Source: an uncultured bacterium
Lineage (GTDB): Bacteria > Bacteroidota > Bacteroidia > Sphingobacteriales > Sphingobacteriaceae
DNA length: 64,000 nt
Assembly: GCA_903838995.1 (NCBI GenBank)
Contig: CAIMAP010000056.1
Coordinates: forward strand, 2,028 to 66,027
Reading direction: 5' to 3'
In this document: one piece after another, positions 39,924-52,117 of the stretch
Layout of the letters: every line of letters starts with the position of its first letter
Numbering within the stretch: the first letter of the stretch is position 1
Program-made: the position numbers and the translations under genes
Notes under the pieces: generated by a model
The model's database searches: none
Seen by the model: the letters and a program-made list of their open reading frames with translations, nothing else
Told to the model about the DNA's origin: nothing

Positions 39924-41225
39924 ATGAAAAAAGATTTTTTGTTTAAAACACTTTATTTGACAGGGTTATTCCTTGTGTTCATGAATGTTCAATCATTCGC
40001 GCAAGACACCATTAGGGTGATGCAATATAATCTTCTTCGTTATGGCGAATCAAATCAGCCACCTAGTACAAAAAACCCTTTACTTTCGACCATCATCAAT
40101 TATGTCAAACCTGATATATTTGGTTGTAACGAAATTTCTGCTACTGCAGATTATGCGCAAAACATTTTAACTGGGGCCCTTAATATTAATGGGGAAACCA
40201 AATGGAAAAGAGCGAAACTTTCTAAGGCTGGTGCAGATGCATCTTTATCCAATACGCTATTTTATAATTCAAATAAGTTTGAACTTATTTCTCAAGATAC
40301 CGTTTCTAAAGTGCAAAGAGAAATTACGGCATTCAATTTATTTTATAAAGATTCTAATCTTGTTAAAACAAAAGATACTATTTTCTTTACGGTACTTGTT
40401 TTACATTTAAAGGCTAGTAATGGTTCTGCAGAAGCAGCGACCAGAGCGGCTGAAACCCAACAGGTATCTAGGTATATGAAGAAATTTACCAAGCCTAAAA
40501 ATGTTTTGATTATGGGAGATTATAATATTTATACCCATACCGAATTGGCCTATCAAAATTTAATTGCGGATACTAATTTAATGGGAAGATTTTATGATCC
40601 ACTAAATAAACCAGGTGCTTGGAATAACAATGGAAGTTTTTCTTCTATTCATACGCAGTCAACTCATAGTGCAACAGGTGGAAGCTTTTCTGGCGGTGGC
40701 ATGGATGATCGATTTGATATTATGTTAGCAACTAAATCGATAATTTCAGATTCTTTGAAAGTTCGCATCTTACCGAATACTTATATTCCTATTGGTAATG
40801 ATGGCATGCATTTTAATTTAGCCTTAACGGATTTACCAGCAAACACTTCGGTGCCTTCTGACGTTTTAGGATCCTTGTATAATATGTCGGATCATTTACC
40901 CATAAGGGCAGATTTTGTTTTTACGCCTTCAAAGCCTGCAGTACAAGGGCTTTCCTTACAGGCAGTTCAATTTTCGCAACAAATTCAAGTAGTCAACCCC
41001 GTAAAAAATAATTTTGAAATTCACTTTAGTGCAAACTTGTTGAATCAAATAATTAATTTAAAAATATATAATCAATCCGGGAATTTAATTGAAAGTCAAA
41101 AAATTGCAACTGCGAATTCTGATTTTCAAATCACACCTACAGCATCATTACCTGAAGGGATTTATTTATTGAGATTTGAAAACAAAGCAGGTTTGTCGGT
41201 CATTAAAAAAATAGCAAAGTATTAA
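39924..41225 (+). CDS. Secreted endonuclease/exonuclease/phosphatase (EEP) family hydrolase with a T9SS C-terminal sorting domain
   Basis: Signal peptide. EEP motifs are 'IRVMQYNL', 'FGCNE', 'IMGDYNI', 'DRFDIML' and 'SDHLPIRADF'. The CTD reads 'IKIYNQSGNLI...EGIYLLRFENKAGLSVIKKIAKY'. Confidence 0.85.
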   Translation: MKKDFLFKTLYLTGLFLVFMNVQSFAQDTIRVMQYNLLRYGESNQPPSTKNPLLSTIINYVKPDIFGCNEISATADYAQNILTGALNINGETKWKRAKLSKAGADASLSNTLFYNSNKFELISQDTVSKVQREITAFNLFYKDSNLVKTKDTIFFTVLVLHLKASNGSAEAATRAAETQQVSRYMKKFTKPKNVLIMGDYNIYTHTELAYQNLIADTNLMGRFYDPLNKPGAWNNNGSFSSIHTQSTHSATGGSFSGGGMDDRFDIMLATKSIISDSLKVRILPNTYIPIGNDGMHFNLALTDLPANTSVPSDVLGSLYNMSDHLPIRADFVFTPSKPAVQGLSLQAVQFSQQIQVVNPVKNNFEIHFSANLLNQIINLKIYNQSGNLIESQKIATANSDFQITPTASLPEGIYLLRFENKAGLSVIKKIAKY

Positions 41226-41226
41226 G

Positions 41227-43341
41227 ATGTTTTTTAAGCAATATTTGAATCGTTATTTTGGGTTATTGGCTGCCTGCATTATTCCGCTAACAGGATTTTC
41301 GCAAGCTTCATTCGATGAAAAATTAACGACAGCAGGAAATATTAGAATGACCATTAATAACCTCGGAATGATTGGAAATGCATTCAAAGGTTCTTATAAT
41401 ATTTTAGCATATCCTTCGTGTGAGTTTCCGGCTAATTCTGGTATAGAACATTTATTCCAGGGTGGTTTATGGATTGGTGCAATGATCAATGGTTCTCAAG
41501 TTGCTGTAAGTTCGGGAGCTACAGATGATGCCGCAGGTTATACAACGGGCAAAAGCGGTTTTGAGTTTACCGCGGCACTGGGTGCTAAAATAAAAGAAAG
41601 ATCTAGCTTAATAGATAATCCATTATACGAAACCAATGCTGTTTCGCATCAAGATTTTCTTTCCGATTTTACAGATAAAAATATTGTTGTTCCTGGAACA
41701 AACATTGCGATTAGCAATCATAATTTTCCACTTGGCGCCGATGTGCATTTTGAAGCCTATAATTATAATTTTAATTTTGCCAATTATTTTGTCATTCTAA
41801 ATTATACCATTACCAATAACAGTGCGACAAATTGGGATAGTGTTTTTATTGGTTATTGGAAAGATGGAGTGGTTAGAAATGTAAATGTTACTCCACCTGG
41901 GGGAAGTGCTTTTTACAATAAAGGCGGAAATGGCTTTTTAGATTCTTTAGATATTGCTTACGAGTTTGACGCTAACGGCGACCCAGGATTTACCGAAACC
42001 TATGTTGGCTTAAAGTATCTTGGATCGATAGACCCTGCAGGCTTTGCACATCCATTATTGAGGCCAAACATGAAAATCAATTATAATTCATGGCAGTTTC
42101 AAAACTCTGCCGATCCATTATATTTTTCACCATCAGACGATAATCAGAAGTATGGTAAAATGACGGCGGGTTTAAATCATCGTGCCGATTGGCAAACCGT
42201 TATTCGTCCTTCCTTAAGTCAGCCGAATAATAGATCGCATTTAATGGCCGTTGGTCCATTCGTTCAAATTAAACCAGGGGAAACTATTAATATTTCTTTT
42301 GCATTAGTTTGCGCTAAAAAGAACGAAGATGGAAAGCCAAACACGGCAGATAATGATTTTCAAAAACAAATTTTAGTACAAAACTCAAAGTTTGCACAAA
42401 CGGCATATAATGGCGAAGACATTAATTTTAATGGCTTATTAGATGCGGGTGAAGATAGAGATGGTAATGGGGTAATTACTCGTTTTGTTTTACCTGCGCC
42501 TCCAGTAATTCCAAGAATGAAAGTGATTGCAACTGAAAATAAAATGGAAATTTATTGGACTAAAAATGCGGAGGCATCGGTCGATCCAATTTCTAAGAAA
42601 AAAGATTTCGAAGGTTATCGATTATATAAAACGGCTTTGGGTTTTGATGTAAAGCAAACGCAAGACATTGCCAAGGCTTTAAAATTAGTGGCAGAATTTG
42701 ATCGCGCAGATAATACTTTGTTTAGCAATACAGGATTGCAATCTATTACATTGCCCGACTCTGTTACTTTTGGCGAGTTAGGCCCATTAGATGAGCCAAT
42801 CTATTATCATTATAAATACACTTTTGATAATTTACAAAATGGATGGCAACATGCCATTGCCTTAACTGCATTTGACCAAGGAGATAAAGTAAATAATTTA
42901 GAATCATTAGAATCTAGTACGCTACCAAATATTAAAAGAGTATTTCCAGGAATGCCGGCAAATGATGGCTTTGAAAATGGAGAACCATTTGTATATCCTA
43001 ATCCTTATTATGGATTAGCCGCTTGGGAAGGTTTAAGTACCAATCCCGAAAGTAAAAAAATATATTTCGCAAACCTACCCGCAAATTGCGTCGTAAAAAT
43101 TTTTACTTCTTCTGGAGATTTAGTAGATCAGTTTACGCATAACGAAAGTTATAATGGTTCGGATATTAAATGGAATAATATATACGCAGATCCAAGCAAG
43201 AATCAGTTTTCAGGTGGAGAACATGCTTGGGATTTATTATCTGCCGATAATCAAATAATAGCTAGAGGAATTTATATGTTTTCTGTAAAAGACAATAAAA
43301 CCGGTAAAGTTGTTAACGGGAAATTCGCATTAATTAAATAA
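41227..43341 (+). CDS. Secreted 704-aa protein of unknown function with a T9SS-CTD/FlgD-Ig-like C-terminus
   Basis: Signal peptide 'LTGFSQA|S' and 'EHLFQGGLWIGAMINGSQV'. Has a Ca-binding-like loop 'DAGEDRDGNGVI' and no HExxH. C-terminus is 'FVYPNPYYG...VVKIFTSSGDLV...ARGIYMFSV...GKFALIK'. Starts 1 nt after the EEP stop codon. Confidence 0.6.
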   Translation: MFFKQYLNRYFGLLAACIIPLTGFSQASFDEKLTTAGNIRMTINNLGMIGNAFKGSYNILAYPSCEFPANSGIEHLFQGGLWIGAMINGSQVAVSSGATDDAAGYTTGKSGFEFTAALGAKIKERSSLIDNPLYETNAVSHQDFLSDFTDKNIVVPGTNIAISNHNFPLGADVHFEAYNYNFNFANYFVILNYTITNNSATNWDSVFIGYWKDGVVRNVNVTPPGGSAFYNKGGNGFLDSLDIAYEFDANGDPGFTETYVGLKYLGSIDPAGFAHPLLRPNMKINYNSWQFQNSADPLYFSPSDDNQKYGKMTAGLNHRADWQTVIRPSLSQPNNRSHLMAVGPFVQIKPGETINISFALVCAKKNEDGKPNTADNDFQKQILVQNSKFAQTAYNGEDINFNGLLDAGEDRDGNGVITRFVLPAPPVIPRMKVIATENKMEIYWTKNAEASVDPISKKKDFEGYRLYKTALGFDVKQTQDIAKALKLVAEFDRADNTLFSNTGLQSITLPDSVTFGELGPLDEPIYYHYKYTFDNLQNGWQHAIALTAFDQGDKVNNLESLESSTLPNIKRVFPGMPANDGFENGEPFVYPNPYYGLAAWEGLSTNPESKKIYFANLPANCVVKIFTSSGDLVDQFTHNESYNGSDIKWNNIYADPSKNQFSGGEHAWDLLSADNQIIARGIYMFSVKDNKTGKVVNGKFALIK

Positions 43342-43375: not shown

Positions 43376-45508
43376 ATGAACAAAAAATTACTCACAATGG
43401 CCATATTGTTGTCTGCTGCATTTACAGCACAAGCACAATATCCTTTAAAAACAATTCAAGCAGTACAAACTGTTTCTCAGCAAGATTTAGCAGCAGGTAT
43501 TGAGGCTTCTTCTATTCCATCTACCGATACCATTAGAATCCGTGGTGTCGTAATAATGGATGCTGGACTTTCTACTTTAGTAGGCGGAAAACAAATTTGG
43601 ATTCAAGCAAATAATGGTTCATCATTTTCTGGTATTGATGTATATCAAAACTTTCCTGGCAGTACGGTAACCGGTGATGCAGGAACTGGCATTCTTTCTT
43701 TAGTTGCGGGTGACTCAGTAGAAATAACTGGTAATGTGTTAGAATATCAAGGGGAAACAGAATTTGTGCCAGTGAATACTACACCTGCTACACCTATTCA
43801 AATTTTAGGCGGCGGAATTACAGTTAAATCAAAATTAATTACTGCAGCAGAATTAAATGACGCCAACAGAAATAATATTTTAACAACTGGCGAACAATAC
43901 GAAGGCATGTATGTAGAGATTCGCAACTTAACTGTTTCTACCGTTGATTATTTTTCGAATGGTACGCGTGTAAGTTTCAATATTGTAGATGCTGCTGGAA
44001 ATAAAATAAATGTTTCTGACAGATTTAAAGCTTTTAAATTACCTGCAGCGGGTGGAACTTTTGTGCCACCAAATGTTGGTGATGTTTTAACAAGCATTAA
44101 AGGAGTTGTTGTTCATTCATTAAACAATCGTGGTTATGAATTGCATGTTTTTGATGCATCTCAAATTGTGTATGGTGCAGCAGCGCCAACTATTTCACAA
44201 ATTACGCGTTCTATTAAAGTACCAACAAGTACAGATGCAATTACCGTAACAGCAAATATTACCGATAAAGACGGTGTTAACTCTGCAGATTTATATTATG
44301 CAGTTGGTGTAAATAGCACATCTTATACATCGGTTGCAATGACTGCAAACGGAAACAGCTATTCGGCTGTGATACCTGCACAAGCAGATGGTTCATTTAT
44401 TAAATATTATATTTCTGCAAAAGATAATTCAACTGGACAATTGGTAAGTCGTATTCCAAATGTGCCTACAGAAGATCCTAAATTTTATGTAGTGCGTAAT
44501 GCAGGAATGGGAATTTATGATGTACAATATACTCCCTTTAAATCTGGAAATTCTGGATTCGCAGGACAAGAAGTTACCGTAAGTGGTATTGTTACTTCAT
44601 CGGCAAACGATTTAGGTTATATATTTATTCAACAAGAAAACCAATTGAATTGGGCTGGTGTAATGTGTATTGGAAGCACTACACTTGCTACCTTAGCTAT
44701 TGGCGATAAAGTTACCGTTACCGGAACTGTTCGCGAAAATTTTGGTTTTACACGTATCGAAGCCATTACCTCTGTTGCTAAAAATGGAACGGGTACCATT
44801 ACGCCAATTGTATTGGTAGCAGATTCATTCCGTAAATATAGTTTCACAGGTACAGAACCATACGAAGGTATGTTGGTGAAATTTGTAGGGAACTCAGGAT
44901 CGACTTTAAAAGTAGTTAATTCAAATGCAGATGATCCTAGTAATTTTGCAGAATACCGTGTAGGTCCAGATACAACAGATGCTGGTGCTGGTTGCAGAAT
45001 AATTGCAGGTAGAGTAACTTCATCAGTTTATTCTTCGTTAAATGTTTCATATGTAAATGATACCATTTGGGCTACCATATCAGGTATTATGAAAGTGGCT
45101 CCAATTGCAGTTCAAAAAGGAGATGCAATGACATCTGTTACAGGTATCATGGATTATTCTTTTAGTAATTGTAAATTAATGCCTCGTAACAATGCAGATT
45201 TTGAAAATTATGTAAGGTTAAATGTTGGCGTAAATAGCAACGCAATTAATTTAGGAAAAGTGGTTGCTTATCCAAATCCAACTAGCAACCAAATTAATTT
45301 TGATTATATCTTACCTGCAAACGCAGCAAATTGCGCAATTGTAGTATACGACTTATTAGGTCAAGAAGTGGCAAGCACTAACATTAACACTTTAAGTGGT
45401 AGTGCAAGTATTGCAACTAGCAACTTAGCACAAGGAACTTATCTCTATTCAATTACTTCAAGTAATTTAGGACAATTGAATAACGGTAGATTTGTAGTGG
45501 TAAAATAA
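43376..45508 (+). CDS. Secreted 710-aa protein with two OB-fold-like modules (as in ExeM/NucH extracellular nucleases), an Ig-like domain and a T9SS CTD
   Basis: Signal peptide. Modules are 'IRIRGVVIMD...IWIQANNG..GIDVY...GDSVEITGNVLEYQGETEF' and 'VTVSGIVTSS...IFIQQEN...GDKVTVTGTVRENFGFTRIE'. 'YEGMYVEI' and 'YEGMLVKF' also occur. CTD is 'AYPNPTSNQINF...GTYLYSI...GRFVVVK'. Confidence 0.6.
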   Translation: MNKKLLTMAILLSAAFTAQAQYPLKTIQAVQTVSQQDLAAGIEASSIPSTDTIRIRGVVIMDAGLSTLVGGKQIWIQANNGSSFSGIDVYQNFPGSTVTGDAGTGILSLVAGDSVEITGNVLEYQGETEFVPVNTTPATPIQILGGGITVKSKLITAAELNDANRNNILTTGEQYEGMYVEIRNLTVSTVDYFSNGTRVSFNIVDAAGNKINVSDRFKAFKLPAAGGTFVPPNVGDVLTSIKGVVVHSLNNRGYELHVFDASQIVYGAAAPTISQITRSIKVPTSTDAITVTANITDKDGVNSADLYYAVGVNSTSYTSVAMTANGNSYSAVIPAQADGSFIKYYISAKDNSTGQLVSRIPNVPTEDPKFYVVRNAGMGIYDVQYTPFKSGNSGFAGQEVTVSGIVTSSANDLGYIFIQQENQLNWAGVMCIGSTTLATLAIGDKVTVTGTVRENFGFTRIEAITSVAKNGTGTITPIVLVADSFRKYSFTGTEPYEGMLVKFVGNSGSTLKVVNSNADDPSNFAEYRVGPDTTDAGAGCRIIAGRVTSSVYSSLNVSYVNDTIWATISGIMKVAPIAVQKGDAMTSVTGIMDYSFSNCKLMPRNNADFENYVRLNVGVNSNAINLGKVVAYPNPTSNQINFDYILPANAANCAIVVYDLLGQEVASTNINTLSGSASIATSNLAQGTYLYSITSSNLGQLNNGRFVVVK

Positions 45509-45515
45509 TTTAAAC

Positions 45516-45551
45516 AGCTGCTTGTGTTGAAAAATGCAAGCAGCTTTTTTA
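45516..45551 (+). terminator. Hairpin plus T tract inside the surface locus (terminator or attenuator)
   Basis: 9-bp stem AGCTGCTTG / CAAGCAGCT with a 12-nt loop, followed by TTTTTTATTT. Lies 8 nt after the 45508 stop codon. Confidence 0.6.
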
Positions 45552-45563
45552 TTTCAAATTCTA

Positions 45564-47051
45564 ATGAAACAAACACGCATTTTATTTTTTCTGTTAGTAA
45601 CAACCATTTTCTCTGCTTGTATAAAAGAAGACGAATTAAAGTTGAATACGAACCCAAACACGAATATATTTTTAGAAAAAATAGATCGTGTAGGCGAAAA
45701 TAGATTAAATACAAATGTAACCATGCATTGGTCGGCCGATGACCGAGACGGCTATATTATAGGATATGAAGTATCTTTAGATAACATCACTTGGTCTTTT
45801 ACCACCAAACAAGACAGCGTTTTTAGGTTTAGTATTTTAAATGGGGATACAACAGACATTAACTTGTATGTTCGTGCAATTGACAACGATGGCAATAAAG
45901 ATTTAACGCCTGCTTATTTAAAAATTCCAATAAAAAACACGATTCCTACCGTTGCATTTGATGACAATTTGATTAAATGCGATTCGGTATATTCAGTTTT
46001 TTCTTTGCTTTTTTCTGCAAACGATTTAGATGGTAACGAAACAATAGATTCAATTTATTTAAAAATAAACAATGGAAATTGGTTTGCACTTTCTAATCAA
46101 TCAACCTTTGTTACCTTAGTACCCAATAATCCAACAATTGCAGGTAACGACCAAGCAAAAGTTTATTTAGGTTACGATGCCATTAAATTAAACAAGCAGA
46201 TGAATGGCTTGTTAGTAGATGGTGCCAATCAAGTATACCTCAAAGCCCGCGATTTTTCTGGTGCAGAGAGTGTCATAGATACCTTAGCGCCATTCTTTTT
46301 AAGAAGAAAAACTTCCGACCTATTGGTCTTAGATGCCTATAATATTGCAACAACTCCTAATGCCGATGTGGTTTATAAAGAAGTATTGCAATCGGTTTAT
46401 GGCGCTGTAGACTATTATGATTTTTTTAGACAAAACAAAGCTTATTTTCCATCTATTTGGAAGCCAACATTTAGCTTGTTTTTGAATTTGTACGATAAGG
46501 TGTTTTGGTATTCTGATAATATTGCTAGTAATAACAATGCCATGCTATTAGAAAGTGGAGCATCCGCAATTCAAAATTATTTAAATGCAGATGGCAAATT
46601 ATTTGTTTGTTCTGATTTTGCAAACAACGCTTACCCATTGGCTTTTTCAAAAACATCACCCATTTTTCAGTTTTCTCCAGCAGATAGTTTTCAAACTTTT
46701 TTTGCGGCTAATCAAAAAGCAAGTATCCCTAAAGATTCGCTGTTACTGCCCAATACGGCTGCAGGCGCAGGTTACCCAACTTTGCTTGCCAGTTCATTTG
46801 CAGACGCAGTTGATCCCTTTTTTGAAAAATCAAATGCGACGGTTATTTATACTGCAAATACTAAAAGAAATTCGGGTGTGACGAATACTAAAGTGGTGAT
46901 GGCCAAAACGCAAAACGCAAATGGTAAAACCAACCAAGTATTTTGCTCAATAGATTTGTTTAAAATGCAAGGCGATGCCAATGCAAATGGACAACAGGAT
47001 GAATTAAAACAATTGTTTCAAAAGATATTTTTAGACGAATTTAATTGGTAA
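45564..47051 (+). CDS. Lipoprotein of unknown function (two Ig-like 'W..D.DG' modules plus a C-terminal alpha/beta-like region)
   Basis: Lipobox 'TIFSAC|IKE' if translation starts at the 45564 ATG. The track start at 45534 sits in the hairpin loop. 'MHWSADDRDGYIIGYEVSLDNITW', 'VRAIDNDGNKD' and 'FSANDLDGNETIDSIYLKINNGNW'. Confidence 0.65.
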   Translation: MKQTRILFFLLVTTIFSACIKEDELKLNTNPNTNIFLEKIDRVGENRLNTNVTMHWSADDRDGYIIGYEVSLDNITWSFTTKQDSVFRFSILNGDTTDINLYVRAIDNDGNKDLTPAYLKIPIKNTIPTVAFDDNLIKCDSVYSVFSLLFSANDLDGNETIDSIYLKINNGNWFALSNQSTFVTLVPNNPTIAGNDQAKVYLGYDAIKLNKQMNGLLVDGANQVYLKARDFSGAESVIDTLAPFFLRRKTSDLLVLDAYNIATTPNADVVYKEVLQSVYGAVDYYDFFRQNKAYFPSIWKPTFSLFLNLYDKVFWYSDNIASNNNAMLLESGASAIQNYLNADGKLFVCSDFANNAYPLAFSKTSPIFQFSPADSFQTFFAANQKASIPKDSLLLPNTAAGAGYPTLLASSFADAVDPFFEKSNATVIYTANTKRNSGVTNTKVVMAKTQNANGKTNQVFCSIDLFKMQGDANANGQQDELKQLFQKIFLDEFNW

Positions 47052-49873
47052 TGAAAAAAAGCATTCTTTATATATTGCTATTTATTTTTTCTTTTGTAAC
47101 ATTTGCTTCTGCGCAAATTCAGACGGGTGTATTAAAAGGTAAAGTAGTTGATAGAAAAACAAAAGAGCCTATTATAGGAGCAACGGTAACCATTGTGGGC
47201 ACTTACTTTGGGGTGAGTACCGATATCAACGGTAATTTTCAAATCAATGCCATTAAACCAGGAGAGTATACTGTGAAAGCAATTTATTTAGGCTATAAAG
47301 AATTGCAGTATAACGGGGTGAAAATAAATGCGACTGTTCCTACACAATTAAATTTATCCTTGACAGAAGTTACCGCAGAAATTGGTGCGGTAGAAGTATT
47401 AGGCCAAAGAACCATTGTCGATTTAGAATCTGGCAAATCGAGTTCGAAAGTTACTTCAGATGACATCAAAGACATGAGTGTGAAAGATGTGCAGTCTATT
47501 GTTGCCAATCAAGCTGGGGTGAGTCAAAATCCAGATGGCTTGCAGATAAGAGGTGGCCGAGTTTATGAAACACAATATTTAGTAGATGGAATTAATGCGC
47601 AAGATCCATTGGCAGGAACAGGCTTTGGCGTCGACATTGCATCCAATGCAGTAAATGATATCGAAGTAATAACCGGTGGTGTTGGAGCAGAATATGGCGA
47701 AGGCACATCGGGCGTGGTACTTACCAGAATTAGAGAAGGTGGAGACAAAGTAAAGTTTGGTGGAAGTTATTATCGAGATAATTTAGGTATTAATGAATCG
47801 AGTAATTGGAATACGGATATGCTCAGCCTTAATTTTGGATCTCCTGTACCATTTACCAAAAAGAAACTTACTTTTTTTAGTAGCGCCAACATGGAATTGA
47901 CGGATGAGTTTTTTAAAAATCCAGCTAATCAATTGCATAGTTCTATGCTTCGTAAAAATGATTCTATATGGGCACCACGCGAAGACAATAAATGGTCGAG
48001 TACTTTCAAGCTAACTTATAATATTGCACCAGGTAAAAAATTATCTATATCAAATCAATCAAGTTTAAATATCAATCAAAATACAAGATCGCTGCAAGTA
48101 GTAGGAAACAATGCTATTGTAACGCCTGGGTATCAATATTTATTTAGCTTGAATATGGATAATGCGGCAACTTATACGCATAAATCAAACTTGTTAATTA
48201 TTCAATATTTAAATTTATTCTCTAAAGAATTATCGATGGATGTTTCTTTTGCAAGACTCTTTACCAATTTAAGAGCCGATGCAAATGGTCGTCCATTCAG
48301 ACCCTCTACCATTGATCAAATTTTTGATCCTGCTTCGATTGTTTCGGATCCTGCCACTTTATTTAATCCTGGCGATTCGGTAATTTATGTAAATCCTGGA
48401 CCAGGATTATATAATAATGGTGGAGTGTCTACCCTATGGCACGATCACTATGCGCAAGAAAATACCTTCAAAGTAAAATTTAATTATACACCTAACAAAG
48501 CCAATTTTATTAGTTTTGGTTTAGAGCATAAAGAGCAAGAGTATCAGTGGGTAGACGTTACCAGACCTTGGATTGGTGCACCAATAATTATTGATGATAC
48601 TACTACCACGGCTTCGTCGAGTATTGGACAATCCAACGATATTTGGAAAGTAAATCCAGCAACAGGCGGTTTGTTTTTTCAAGATGAATTACGTTACAAG
48701 GGAATCATTGTCAATGCAGGTATACGATTAAATTATTGGATGCCAGGTAAATTTGCAGATCAAGCAGTGGCAGATCCTAACGCACCAGTAATTGCAGCCA
48801 TTAGAGAATCGTATATAAAAAATAGCACCGAAATATTTGGACGCAGAACAAAATTTAGGTTATTACCAAAACTTAGAATTTCTTTTCCTGTTTCTGAAAA
48901 TAATGTATTGTATTTTAATTACGGACACCTTAGCAGATTACCACATCCTCGCTTTGTCTATGCAGGTTTAGATCCTGTTTATCAAAACCGATCGTTCTTA
49001 GCCAACTTGGGTAATCCAGATTTAAATCCCGAAGTAACTGTTTCTTACGAAGTGGGAATAAAAACACAAGTAACCGCTAATTTTGCTATTACTGCTACTG
49101 CATTTTATAACGATAAATTTGATTATATCGTGAGTAGAAGAATTATTGTAAAAGACCAAACCGGTCGATTTGTCGAAAAGAATTTTAATATCAATCAAGA
49201 CTATGCAAGAATTCGTGGCTTCGAATTAACCTTGAATAGAAGAGTGCAAAAATATTTGAGTACAACCTTTAGTGCGGCCTATCAAATAGCAACTGGTAAA
49301 TCTAATTCTGCACAAGAATCGCAATTACAAATTTTACAAACAGGTTCGGTATCACCAACGGTAGAGCAGTACTTAGCTTGGGACAGACCCCTTGATTTAA
49401 AATTAATGATTGTATTTAAACCAGACACTTCCTTTCATATTGGACGAATTAATTTTAATAAAGTAAGGGTGTTTTTAAATTCAACTTATAAATCTGGTTT
49501 AAGATATACACCTTATTATCAAAATGGAGTAGAGCCCAATGGCAGACCTATATACGAGCCAGACGAATTGAATCCATTTAGTAAAATAGGTGCTGCTTGG
49601 TGGAATACAGATTTAAAAATCACCAAAGATATTTCCATTAAAAGAGGCCAACAAATTAGTTTGAGTATCGAGTTTAAAAATATTTTTGATAATAAAAATG
49701 CAGCCATTATTAATCCTATAACAGGAAAAGCCTACGAATACGGTGATCCGCTGCCTAATACTTATCGCGATCCAATGTATCCAGATCCACAAGACAACGG
49801 GGTGCCACCATTTAACCCTGCAAGGTATTTAACCCCAAGGCAAGTGTTGGCAGGAATTAGTTGGCAGTTTTAA
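47051..49873 (+). CDS. TonB-dependent outer-membrane transporter with an N-terminal carboxypeptidase-regulatory-like domain (no SusD partner)
   Basis: Signal peptide. 'GKVVDRKTKEPIIGATVTIVGTYFGVSTDINGNFQI..KPGEYTV' is the N-domain. Plug is 'DGLQIRGGRVYETQYLVDGI'. Terminal 'LAGISWQF'. The ATG overlaps the upstream stop codon (TAATG). The track start at 47045 is a TTG codon. Confidence 0.88.
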   Translation: MKKSILYILLFIFSFVTFASAQIQTGVLKGKVVDRKTKEPIIGATVTIVGTYFGVSTDINGNFQINAIKPGEYTVKAIYLGYKELQYNGVKINATVPTQLNLSLTEVTAEIGAVEVLGQRTIVDLESGKSSSKVTSDDIKDMSVKDVQSIVANQAGVSQNPDGLQIRGGRVYETQYLVDGINAQDPLAGTGFGVDIASNAVNDIEVITGGVGAEYGEGTSGVVLTRIREGGDKVKFGGSYYRDNLGINESSNWNTDMLSLNFGSPVPFTKKKLTFFSSANMELTDEFFKNPANQLHSSMLRKNDSIWAPREDNKWSSTFKLTYNIAPGKKLSISNQSSLNINQNTRSLQVVGNNAIVTPGYQYLFSLNMDNAATYTHKSNLLIIQYLNLFSKELSMDVSFARLFTNLRADANGRPFRPSTIDQIFDPASIVSDPATLFNPGDSVIYVNPGPGLYNNGGVSTLWHDHYAQENTFKVKFNYTPNKANFISFGLEHKEQEYQWVDVTRPWIGAPIIIDDTTTTASSSIGQSNDIWKVNPATGGLFFQDELRYKGIIVNAGIRLNYWMPGKFADQAVADPNAPVIAAIRESYIKNSTEIFGRRTKFRLLPKLRISFPVSENNVLYFNYGHLSRLPHPRFVYAGLDPVYQNRSFLANLGNPDLNPEVTVSYEVGIKTQVTANFAITATAFYNDKFDYIVSRRIIVKDQTGRFVEKNFNINQDYARIRGFELTLNRRVQKYLSTTFSAAYQIATGKSNSAQESQLQILQTGSVSPTVEQYLAWDRPLDLKLMIVFKPDTSFHIGRINFNKVRVFLNSTYKSGLRYTPYYQNGVEPNGRPIYEPDELNPFSKIGAAWWNTDLKITKDISIKRGQQISLSIEFKNIFDNKNAAIINPITGKAYEYGDPLPNTYRDPMYPDPQDNGVPPFNPARYLTPRQVLAGISWQF

Positions 49874-49913
49874 TTAAACGCAAATGAATTATTTTATTTA
49901 TAAAAATATTGAA

Positions 49914-50915
49914 ATGAAAAAATACTTAATCATGTTGATGTGTATGATGAGTAGTATGTTGGTGCAGGCGCAATTGATGCCAAATTTAGGTGGTCAAAGA
50001 GCAGGTACTTCGGCATTTAATTTTTTAAAATTAAATTTCAATCCAAGGGCAACGGCTATGGCTGGCGCTAGTGCTGCAATGCCCGGCGATGCCTACGCTG
50101 CAGCTGCAAATCCTGCGGCATTAATTGACATCAAAGAGCTAAGTTTTGCTTTATCTTCTCAACAATATTATGCTGGTGCAAATACCAGTTATTTAGCGGC
50201 AGTGTTGCCAACTAAACATTATAGCGCTTGGGCATTTCAATTGCAAAGTTACCGAACCGATGCCATGGAAAAACGCACCGAATTTCAACCCTATGGAACA
50301 GGCGAATATTTTTATGGACAAAATTTAGCTTTTGGTCTTAGTTACAGTAAAATTCTTTCTGACTATTTTAGTTATGGAATTTCTGCTAAGTATGTATATG
50401 AAGGTATTGATAATTACAGCGCACATACTGGGGTAGTTGATTTAGGATTTTTGTATAAAACAGATTTTAAAGATTTAAAATTTGCCGTATTGCTTTCTAA
50501 TTTTGGCATCAATACAAAAATAGATGGACAAACAAATACTTTAGTTGCTTTCAATAATTCGACAGAAGATATCAACGCTTATGCAGCGCCAACACTATTT
50601 AAAATGGGCGTTTCGCTTGTGCCCTATAAATCTGGCAGAAATCAACTCTTAGTGGCAGCAGAGTTGCAGCATCCAAACGACAATTCAGAAAACATTCGTT
50701 TGGGTTTAGAATATAGTTGGATGGAAATGTTTTTTGTGAGGGCAGGCTACAAGCTAGGATTGAAAGACCAAACCACACCAACATTTGGCGCAGGTATTCG
50801 CAGTCATTTTGGACGCTATCCTTTAAATATAACTTATGCTGCAGATCCACATCCAAACTTGGGATTTGCACAACAAATTGGGGTAGCCATTACATTAACT
50901 AAAGAAACAAGGTAA
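49914..50915 (+). CDS. PorV/PorQ-family outer-membrane beta-barrel protein
   Basis: Signal 'MLVQAQ'. The 'GGQRAGTSAFNFLKLNFNPRATAMAGASAAMPGDAYAAAANPAAL' N-terminal motif is typical of the PorV/PorQ family. Beta-strand periodicity throughout. The ATG at 49914 is preferred. Confidence 0.7.
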   Translation: MKKYLIMLMCMMSSMLVQAQLMPNLGGQRAGTSAFNFLKLNFNPRATAMAGASAAMPGDAYAAAANPAALIDIKELSFALSSQQYYAGANTSYLAAVLPTKHYSAWAFQLQSYRTDAMEKRTEFQPYGTGEYFYGQNLAFGLSYSKILSDYFSYGISAKYVYEGIDNYSAHTGVVDLGFLYKTDFKDLKFAVLLSNFGINTKIDGQTNTLVAFNNSTEDINAYAAPTLFKMGVSLVPYKSGRNQLLVAAELQHPNDNSENIRLGLEYSWMEMFFVRAGYKLGLKDQTTPTFGAGIRSHFGRYPLNITYAADPHPNLGFAQQIGVAITLTKETR

Positions 50916-52117
50916 TGATTCAAGGTATAAAAAAATTATTTATCTTATTTTTTGCAATTGCTTTTTTGGCAAGTTGTGAAAATCCATTTGGTGATAAAAC
51001 TAATTTAAGTTTTATTGATGTACCTAATTACGACGAGCAGCCCATTGCTTTTGTTCCCATTCAACCTGCGTTAAAAGATTTCGATTATCCAAGTGCTGTT
51101 TTTATTGGCTACGACGAGTTGGTATATATTGCAGATCAAGGAAGGTCAATTGTTTATTGCTTCGATCAAAGTGGAAAGAAAATTTCACAATTAAGCATTC
51201 CAGGTTTGAAATCTGTTGCAATGGATAGAAGTCTCAATCTATTGGCACTAGGGTCAATAGACACACTCATCAATGGCAATACATTTAAGTTAGATGCGGT
51301 ATTCAGATATGAGTTAGCTTCATCCGATGGTTATGGATTAGCAAAAGCAAAACTTGTTAAAAGAACAATTCATCCATTTTATTTTAAAACAAGTTTTACT
51401 ACTTCAGATACAGCTACGCATTTTAATGCAATAAGTATCATGGCAGATAATAATTATTACATCACTCGATCGGGGCCATCTAATTCGTCGACGCAAATTG
51501 GTGGGCCAGATGATGCCATACTTGTTTTTAATTCGCGTGATAAATTTGTAACAACTGTTAATGTACAAACAGCACAAGGATTAATGAGCGATTATTTCAA
51601 AAAACCATTTGCCATTACTACACTTGCAAAAGGCCCGCAATCGCCAATTGTAAAGCAAGGCGGCGATTTTATATTTACTTCTGTTAATCCTGGAACAACC
51701 ATCAAAACACAATACATTAGTTTTCTTTCTTCCGAATTTGGTTCGAGCTATTCTTTAAACACGGCGCTTGCAGGACAAGACACTTCTAAAGCAAATGGAT
51801 TTATTTATTCACCTGATAAATTTTCTTCGCCAGTTGGGGTGACCATTGCAGGCGATGGTAGTAATTATATTTTTGTGGCAGATGCGGCCAAAGATTCTGT
51901 TTATTTATTTTCGTTAAATGGATTAGAAGGCATTCAGCCGCCTCCAGGTTATGCAGCAAAAAAATACATTAAAGTTTCTTTTGGAGGCAGTGGATTAGGC
52001 CCTAAACAATTTAACAGACCAGTTGCGGTAGCATATCACAATCAAATTCTATATGTGTGCGATGCAGGCAATGGCAGGGTTACTCGATTCAAATTAAGTA
52101 CCGAATTTATCAATTAA
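50915..52117 (+). CDS. NHL-repeat beta-propeller lipoprotein
   Basis: Lipobox 'AFLASC|ENP'. NHL-like repeats are 'PSAVFIGYDELVYIADQGRSIVYCFDQSG', 'PVGVTIAGDGSNYIFVADAAKDSVYLFSLNG' and 'NRPVAVAYHNQILYVCDAGNGRVTRFK'. The ATG overlaps the upstream stop codon. Confidence 0.7.
   Translation: MIQGIKKLFILFFAIAFLASCENPFGDKTNLSFIDVPNYDEQPIAFVPIQPALKDFDYPSAVFIGYDELVYIADQGRSIVYCFDQSGKKISQLSIPGLKSVAMDRSLNLLALGSIDTLINGNTFKLDAVFRYELASSDGYGLAKAKLVKRTIHPFYFKTSFTTSDTATHFNAISIMADNNYYITRSGPSNSSTQIGGPDDAILVFNSRDKFVTTVNVQTAQGLMSDYFKKPFAITTLAKGPQSPIVKQGGDFIFTSVNPGTTIKTQYISFLSSEFGSSYSLNTALAGQDTSKANGFIYSPDKFSSPVGVTIAGDGSNYIFVADAAKDSVYLFSLNGLEGIQPPPGYAAKKYIKVSFGGSGLGPKQFNRPVAVAYHNQILYVCDAGNGRVTRFKLSTEFIN

Follow-up and report, generated by a model that had tools for sequence, protein, structure and literature searches.

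A PorV/PorQ-like outer-membrane barrel encoded with a TonB-dependent transporter in a conserved seven-gene cluster of Bacteroidota

A stretch of 64,000 nucleotides from an uncultured bacterium of the Sphingobacteriaceae (GenBank assembly GCA_903838995.1, contig CAIMAP010000056.1, positions 2,028 to 66,027), here called the window, contains a gene for an outer-membrane barrel of the PorV/PorQ family. The gene is the sixth of a seven-gene cluster encoding proteins A, B and C, lipoprotein D, a TonB-dependent transporter (TBDT), the barrel and an NHL-repeat lipoprotein, in that order (Table 1). [quoted passage not shown] There appears to be a further clade of PorV/PorQ-like barrels, each paired with a TBDT and with a class of C-terminal domain (CTD) that the curated models miss, and the window barrel belongs to this clade. 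By analogy with its relatives, the barrel is probably a dedicated anchor that holds one protein of the cluster, B, at the cell surface beside the TBDT.

The barrel gene and its product

The product of 333 aa starts with a signal peptide (MKKYLIMLMCMMSSMLVQA, residues 1-19) followed by the mature N-terminus Q20, a glutamine that is invariant in the orthologues. The N-terminal motif cited in an earlier note on this DNA, made by a model from the letters alone, is present in the translation. An alternative in-frame ATG at 49884 would add 10 residues. The first methionine of MKK is nearly invariant in the barrel alignment, and because distant orthologues begin there the start at 49914 was preferred. 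Gene spacing was as the earlier note had described it: the TBDT open reading frame (ORF) stops at 49873, 40 nt before the barrel start, and the final A of the barrel gene's TAA (50913-50915) is also the first base of the NHL start codon ATG (aggTAATGatt).

Membership of the PorV/PorQ family, which the earlier note had proposed, was confirmed by the NCBIfam model NF033709 (PorV_fam; 150.8 bits against a cut-off of 90, E 6.8e-44, profile positions 1-322 of 326) together with a PorV-like fold. The cut-offs of the equivalog models were missed widely, with 92.6 bits for PorQ (NF033711, cut-off 220, N-terminal half only), 56.7 bits for PorV (NF033710, cut-off 250) and 44.3 bits for PorV2 (NF052325, cut-off 325). 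No PorP/SprF model matched at E <= 0.01 in the NCBIfam search, the match to the FadL/TodX model PF03349 (Toluene_X) was sub-threshold (16 bits against 29.7) and confined to the N-terminal 64 residues, and the protein was not reported by Pfam's PorV model. Many of the barrel orthologues carry PF19572. When a profile of 27 orthologues was used, the single PDB relative found by sequence was PorV of Flavobacterium johnsoniae (6h3i_F, E 1.9e-13).

The AlphaFold2 model (predicted local distance difference test score 80.2) has 14 strands behind a helical N-terminal hatch segment, as expected of the FadL-like barrel that the earlier note had anticipated. The top Foldseek match was PorV in the SprA translocon complex (8gl6_F, E 4.5e-13, template modelling (TM) score 0.68/0.62), followed by FadL/TodX and, lower, by the BamG chains 9hiv_F and 9hjm_F (E about 1e-5). 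An unrelated OmpA-like barrel is ruled out by the family score and the fold. In the hatch, the NPA motif (N66-P67-A68) is invariant in the 27 orthologues. With the strand and loop sides assigned by the lengths of the modelled loops and not by coordinates, two predicted extracellular loops are clade-specific, L2 (RTEFQPYGTGE, 121-131) and L5 (HPNDNSEN, 253-260), and both rank with the best-conserved parts of the barrel (column homogeneity 0.68 and 0.87, respectively). The long L5 insert of PorV is absent.

Family members in this and other genomes

Five members of the family were found above the PorV_fam cut-off in the genome that includes the window (1.99 Mb in 214 contigs, 99.4% complete). The true PorV is on contig C137 directly after PorU and the true PorQ on contig C84 next to cmk, both identified by equivalog and context, while PorV2 is on contig C169. 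The remaining two members are generic, namely the window barrel and a paralogue on contig C49. As PorV, PorQ and PorV2 are all encoded elsewhere, the gene is a specialised paralogue, in agreement with the earlier note, and a single housekeeping PorV/PorQ is ruled out. The host T9SS includes PorV, PorU and PorQ equivalogs, and 59 ORFs match the type A CTD profile. One of the control genomes, that of Bacteroides thetaiotaomicron, which to our knowledge has no T9SS, also contains a PorV_fam match above the curated cut-off, so family membership alone is no proof of a role in the T9SS.

In three other Bacteroidota genomes (G096, G167 and G276), the 15 kb around each family member was examined and the neighbours were annotated with local profiles. 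Each of these genomes contains 10-13 members above the cut-off. Sixteen of the barrels were found in triads that consist of a TBDT (820-1120 aa), then a partner protein of 680-1270 aa, then the barrel. The C-termini of the partners match a profile of the CTD of protein B (E 1e-9 to 1e-22), and CTDs of this class are referred to below as partner-type. Eight triad partners had no Pfam family, and NCBIfam gave two faint matches to the PorZ tail and no others. The C49 paralogue in the window's genome follows a protein of >1000 aa with a partner-type CTD, and the contig ends inside the gene for that protein. In each of the four genomes the true PorV gene comes after PorU. In the three other genomes, barrels of the clade are encoded with a TBDT in 19/19 further loci, and at the level of gene association this bears out the tie to the TBDT suggested in the earlier note.

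A tree of 61 barrels, built with the quick search of IQ-TREE and with support from the Shimodaira-Hasegawa-like approximate likelihood ratio test (SH-aLRT) only, placed the window barrel outside the PorV and PorQ clades. PorV, PorQ and PorV2 each formed their own clade (SH-aLRT 99), as did the 25 barrels of the orthologous group to which the window barrel belongs (99). All 16 triad barrels fell outside the PorV and PorQ clades. Fourteen grouped with the 25-member orthologous clade (86) and the other two clustered with the C49 paralogue (99) at a place in the tree that is provisional. The deep branches were weak (55). Four long branches were flagged, three of them unclassified barrels and the fourth the PorQ of the window's own genome. 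The loop motifs, in the form TTExxPxGTGE for L2 and HPNDNxE for L5, were found in all barrels of the orthologous group and in most triad barrels, and were absent from PorV, PorQ, PorV2 and the other paralogues compared. An additional N-terminal segment, QLxPxLGGQRAG, is conserved in barrels of the orthologous group and lacking in the triad barrels. The window barrel thus belongs to the TBDT-associated clade by its grouping with the triad barrels, by its L2 and L5 motifs and by the presence of both a TBDT and a partner-type CTD in its cluster.

A further recurring module was seen at loci L134 (G096), L145 (G167) and L157 (G276). It is made up of a ~275-aa lipoprotein, a protein of 524-536 aa whose CTD is type A-like, and a tandem pair of PorV-family barrels of about 330-346 aa and 300-313 aa, each of which has its own well-supported clade.

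The CTD of protein B and its pairing with the barrels

The C-terminus of B is a CTD-like beta-sandwich with the pattern PNPYY ... NLP..C ... GIYMF ... GKFALIK, and it was detected by neither the curated type A nor the curated type B CTD models. In NCBIfam and Pfam, B has no family apart from a faint sub-threshold match to the PorZ tail, and a fold search with the model of B returned only generic beta-sandwich/FN3 matches (TM about 0.25). As the PorZ-tail matches are faint and the PorZ of the window's genome does not match the partner-CTD profile, we dropped the label PorZ-like CTD as a claim of membership. Comparison by hhalign of the partner-type and type A CTDs gave a probability of 96.5% (E 1e-9) with a 13-aa insert after PNPY, and on this profile comparison the partner-type CTD is a divergent relative of type A. 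In the seven-gene cluster, CTDs of the B type are longer by another insert of ~24 residues.

The CTDs of A and C, on the other hand, pass the type A models (TIGR04183/PF18962), as do those of about 57 other proteins that are served by one PorV. The CHU_C/type B model was sub-threshold on A and C and gave no match on B. The CTD of B is more conserved than its passenger (0.70 vs 0.59) and is nearly invariant across orders, while the reverse was found for A (0.24 vs 0.40) and C (0.28 vs 0.43). A tail that is better conserved than its passenger is what would be expected if it is kept bound to a partner, and not if it is a removable export signal. On these sequence features, the client of the barrel is likely to be B alone, not A, B and C together.

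A partner-type profile (A3) built from 19 CTDs was searched over G096, G167 and G276. Matches of at least 83 bits numbered 9, 9 and 4, respectively, and the next scored 58 bits or less. All of the strong matches cluster with a barrel of the clade, of which there are 6, 9 and 4 in the three genomes. The window's genome has two strong partner-type CTDs, in B and in the C49 protein, and exactly two clade barrels, each clustered with one of them. Taken together, the four genomes contain 24 partner-type CTD genes, all of them clustered with 21 clade barrels, mostly as triads. In G096, three tandem genes for proteins of about 1045-1059 aa with partner-type CTDs (83-84 bits) lie downstream of locus L133 (G096:C1:669467-676087), behind a triad with a single barrel, and here one barrel may serve several clients.

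Conservation of the cluster

The barrel has >1000 homologues, of which the best 120 share 45-97% identity with it. A genome scan confirmed at least 586 relatives, and synteny was assessed in the best 80 loci. These came from both metagenome-assembled genomes (MAGs) and isolates labelled as Sphingobacteriales, Cytophagales, Owenweeksia, Salibacteraceae, Schleiferiaceae, Crocinitomicaceae, Vicingaceae, Acidiluteibacter and others. Among the matches listed, the closest (96%) are in freshwater Sphingobacteriales MAGs. The order A-B-C-D-TBDT-barrel-NHL is retained in most of the 80 loci, across Sphingobacteriales, Cytophagales and Flavobacteriales, and across orders the synteny is fixed at 42-50% barrel identity. 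One organism in culture that has the complete cluster is Acidiluteibacter ferrifornacis S-15 (locus L055). A was found in 33/80 loci compared with 77/80 for the barrel. Column homogeneity in 27 diverse loci was highest for the TBDT (0.63), followed by B (0.59), the barrel (0.54), NHL (0.51), C (0.41), D (0.39) and A (0.34).

In 17/80 loci there is no TBDT upstream of the barrel; about half of these loci retain the NHL gene after the barrel, and the others have a barrel on its own. The other components were found elsewhere in such genomes. Exactly one clear copy of B (52-59% identity) was present in 10/10 of the unlinked-barrel genomes examined, one TBDT orthologue (53-59% identity) in 5/5 of those searched, and one unlinked NHL copy (44-50% identity) in each of five genomes with a solo barrel. 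Five of the genomes searched keep the barrel-NHL pair. The B locus is complete in four of them, and in these B is beside C; in one genome the TBDT is preceded by D. That the components co-occur even when unlinked argues for one functional system. The NHL gene, which the earlier note had overlooked in this respect, is the tightest gene partner of the barrel, and the pair persists in several broken-up clusters.

In the genomes rated the closest kin of the window's organism (same family or class, 4-6 Mb), we found only weak, paralogue-level matches to the barrel (E 1e-9 to 1e-20), and the strong orthologues are in more distant classes. Either the 2-Mb MAG is taxonomically misplaced or the cluster has been lost in the lineage. 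In a phylum-wide survey that scored seven candidates per genome, the scores ran continuously from the orthologues into the triad paralogues, and hence gave no clean count of orthologues.

Other components of the cluster

The features of the cluster are listed in Table 1.

Table 1. Features of the seven-gene cluster in the window
Feature	Position	Strand	Basis or remark
Protein A, 433 aa, EEP-fold nuclease-like hydrolase, ordinary type A CTD	39924..41225	+	Por_Secre_tail 37.4 bits; sub-threshold MnuA, ExeM/NucH
Protein B, 704 aa, proposed client of the barrel	41227..43341	+	beta-sandwich N-domain, FN3-like domain, partner-type CTD
Partner-type CTD of B, about residues 585-704	42979..43338	+	
Protein C, 710 aa, segment like the ExeM/NucH N-terminus, ordinary type A CTD	43376..45508	+	Pfam/NCBIfam
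Terminator-like hairpin of 13 pairs, then T run (TTTTTATTT), between C and D	45516..45545	+	
Lipoprotein D, about 495-505 aa, lipobox FSAC then IKEDEL	45534..47051	+	
TBDT, 942 aa; CarboxypepD_reg N-domain, plug, barrel	47045..49873	+	Pfam/NCBIfam
PorV/PorQ-family 14-strand outer-membrane barrel, TBDT-associated clade	49914..50915	+	family models, fold, tree, loop motifs; not PorV, PorQ or PorV2
NHL-repeat beta-propeller lipoprotein, lipobox LASC, translationally coupled to the barrel gene	50915..52117	+	

The hairpin between C and D may split the cluster into an A-B-C and a D-TBDT-barrel-NHL unit, and no terminator-like site was found on the + strand between the TBDT, barrel and NHL genes. 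The longest ORF for D starts inside the hairpin, so the later ATG at 45564 is favoured as its start. The number of sites in a sigma-70 promoter scan was not above that in shuffled sequences, and such a scan is ill-suited to Bacteroidota promoters. The D gene overlaps the start of the TBDT gene and also adjoins it in L094, a genome with a dispersed cluster; the IKEDEL sequence that follows the lipidated Cys of D is compatible with a surface-export signal.

The TBDT is the most conserved protein of the cluster (52-59% identity across orders). It is not a full member of the SusC/RagA family (65 bits against a cut-off of 368), and no SusD gene follows it. Three of the eight other TBDT-like ORFs in the window's genome are directly beside ordinary type A CTD genes, on C106 (7427-13221), C149 (10601-15001) and C81 (1221-5205), and in this small genome TBDT and T9SS cargo genes seem to adjoin one another more widely.

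Orthologues of the NHL lipoprotein have, immediately behind the lipidated Cys, a C-E-x-[YF]-[FL]-G peptide that is near-invariant, with at least two acidic residues in 42/59, and from its sequence it resembles a docking peptide more than a simple signal for surface export. Searches of Pfam and NCBIfam with the NHL lipoprotein gave only a sub-threshold NHL repeat and no OmpA-like or other domain. At a loose Pfam threshold, B, D and the NHL lipoprotein yielded nothing useful beyond one NHL repeat.

A probable dedicated anchor for B and the alternatives

If the barrel is a dedicated anchor for B, then B would be exported by Sec and would cross the T9SS translocon via its CTD. The dedicated barrel, and not the general carrier PorV, would take it over, and the CTD would escape removal by PorU and stay on the extracellular loops of the barrel, as for PorZ on PorQ, PorU on PorV and type B cargo on PorP/SprF. 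B would be fixed non-covalently at the surface beside the TBDT, as a substrate-capturing partner in the place of SusD. There are precedents for these steps. PorV and PorQ serve as the anchors of PorU and PorZ, respectively (PMC12365241), a review hypothesises that cognate PorV-like barrels keep CTDs and shield them from cleavage (PMC10202324), and in PorP-PorE-PG1035 and SprF-SprB a cognate barrel holds the type B cargo, in some cases together with a PorE-like lipoprotein (PMC9143113).

As a TBDT is present throughout, the anchored protein would seem to act with the transporter as a capture subunit, and contact between barrel and TBDT would be in keeping with their gene association and with known complexes. 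BamG, a FadL-type barrel that lies against a larger barrel and grips a lipoprotein (PMC12578637, PMC12611786), makes it plausible that the barrel touches both the TBDT and the NHL lipoprotein, and such contact would fit the translational coupling of the NHL gene, the C-E-x-[YF]-[FL]-G motif and the extra N-terminal segment of the barrel. The NHL propeller lipoprotein is probably co-produced with the barrel as part of the same surface assembly, while A and C most likely use the housekeeping PorV/PorU route. The substrate is possibly extracellular nucleic acid, as faintly hinted by the resemblance of A to EEP proteins and MnuA/ExeM and of C to ExeM/NucH.

Several observations weigh against B as the client. 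The likeness of its CTD to the PorZ tail is sub-threshold and the genome's own PorZ does not match the partner-CTD profile. B is not the neighbour of the barrel in the window, where three genes lie between them, and in several dispersed genomes it is NHL and not B that stays beside the barrel. The three extra partner-type CTD genes on one barrel in G096 mean that the pairing is not strictly one-to-one. In a crude mirror-tree analysis the partial r was 0.03 for barrel and B, compared with 0.51 for barrel and TBDT and 0.42 for barrel and A; as the locus pairs are non-independent and the seven proteins have a shared history, these values carry little weight either way.

The earlier note had proposed that the barrel serves all three of the CTD proteins as a locus-specific anchor or shuttle. 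It is true that A, B and C have T9SS-type tails and are encoded in one conserved cluster with the barrel, and the mirror-tree residual for barrel and A points weakly the same way. However, this proposal did not hold up well and is now improbable: A and C have the ordinary type A CTDs that one PorV handles for about 57 other proteins, these CTDs are the least conserved parts of the two proteins, A is missing from many loci that have the barrel, and in the paralogous triads the partner-type protein is the only constant CTD protein. We regard as unlikely, though deserving more weight than the shared anchor, a role like that of BamG with BamA and BamH, in which the barrel docks on the TBDT, clamps the lipid-anchored N-terminus of the NHL lipoprotein and binds no CTD. 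The TAATG coupling, the survival of the barrel-NHL pair after break-up of the cluster in several genomes, the conserved peptide right after the lipid Cys, the BamG chains among the Foldseek matches and the mirror-tree residual for barrel and TBDT are all in its favour, and the QLxPxLGGQRAG segment of the orthologous group recalls the extended N-tail of BamG (PMC12611786, PMC12578637). Against this, the sister triad barrels have no NHL gene and yet have the loop motifs and always a partner-type CTD gene, and the sequence of the barrel is that of PorV/PorQ and not of FadL/BamG, as the Toluene_X score indicates. The two roles are compatible, and part of the BamG-like role may hold alongside the anchoring of B.

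Two further alternatives dispense with a special protein client. A FadL-type channel for passive lateral diffusion of a small or hydrophobic product, parallel to the TBDT, would account for the FadL/TodX fold, the invariant NPA motif in the hatch and the PorV_fam match in B. thetaiotaomicron, but would not explain why the barrels pair so strictly in the genomes with a special CTD class; PorV is the best structural and the only PDB sequence relative of the barrel, and its most conserved parts are extracellular loops, so that we consider a channel very unlikely. That the gene is a redundant spare copy of a general PorV or PorQ is scarcely credible. Although the family is the same and PorQ is the second-best model, all three equivalog cut-offs are missed widely, the clade is separate and well supported, the long L5 insert of PorV is absent, and the synteny is fixed across orders at 42-50% identity.

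Novelty and significance

Our literature searches found no paper that describes a PorV/PorQ-like barrel tied to a TBDT, a partner-type CTD or the triads, and PorV2 was mentioned in no relevant paper. This agrees with the remark in the earlier note that locus-specific paralogues of this family lack functional dissection. If the pairing reflects binding, catalogues of T9SS cargo based on known CTDs are incomplete, the T9SS helps to build nutrient importers, and substrate capture occurs without SusD in many Bacteroidota. The partner proteins examined (680-1270 aa, several per genome) belong to no Pfam or NCBIfam family, and if their function were known, a large tract of dark protein space in environmental Bacteroidota could be annotated. 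More tentatively, the clade barrels and the partner-type CTD could represent a third branch of T9SS cargo handling, in which an uncleaved CTD on a private PorQ-like barrel makes a secreted binding protein a fixed subunit of a TBDT. This would give SusD-independent 'utilisomes', many per genome in free-living Bacteroidota, of which the seven-gene version would serve the capture and import of extracellular nucleic acid; we would not yet put the chance of this at even.

Comparison with known systems

The canonical triads share with the window cluster the barrel clade, the partner-type CTD and the TBDT association. In the window cluster, by contrast, the partner gene is three genes upstream of the TBDT gene and the barrel gene directly follows the latter, and there are in addition two lipoproteins, two type A cargo proteins, the N-terminal segment of the barrel and the CTD insert.

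In the PorQ-PorZ and PorV-PorU pairs of Porphyromonas gingivalis, a 14-strand barrel of the family holds one T9SS-exported protein via its CTD (PMC12365241), and according to a review the CTDs of PorZ and PorU are retained and not cleaved (PMC10202324). The window barrel is from the same curated family, and the CTD of its proposed client is likewise non-standard and conserved. Unlike PorQ and PorV, to which it is not orthologous, the barrel belongs to another clade, its candidate client is an unannotated, 704-aa predicted surface protein and not a T9SS component, and the module is tied to a TBDT, with many paralogous copies per genome in other Bacteroidota.

The PorP/SprF systems also have clustered barrel and cargo genes and non-covalent anchoring, often with the gene for a propeller lipoprotein beside that for the barrel (PMC9143113). 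The pair formed by the window barrel and the NHL lipoprotein follows the same logic as a PorP/SprF barrel with a PorE-like lipoprotein. Unlike in those systems, the CTD in the window is a divergent relative of type A and not type B, and no link to gliding is apparent.

In the BamG-BamH-BamA complex, a 14-strand barrel of the FadL superfamily is packed on a larger barrel and grips a surface lipoprotein, and in B. thetaiotaomicron paralogous genes for a BamG-type barrel and a lipoprotein are adjacent (PMC12578637, PMC12611786). BamG differs from the window barrel in being FadL/Toluene_X proper with no CTD client, and it is the more distant structural match (Foldseek E about 1e-5 vs 4.5e-13 for PorV). 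The cluster resembles SusC/SusD (RagA/RagB) loci in that one locus combines the genes for a TBDT, a dedicated surface partner, lipoproteins and secreted enzymes. Unlike those loci, it has no SusD, and the presumed partner would reach the surface via the T9SS and be held there by a separate barrel instead of a lipid anchor.

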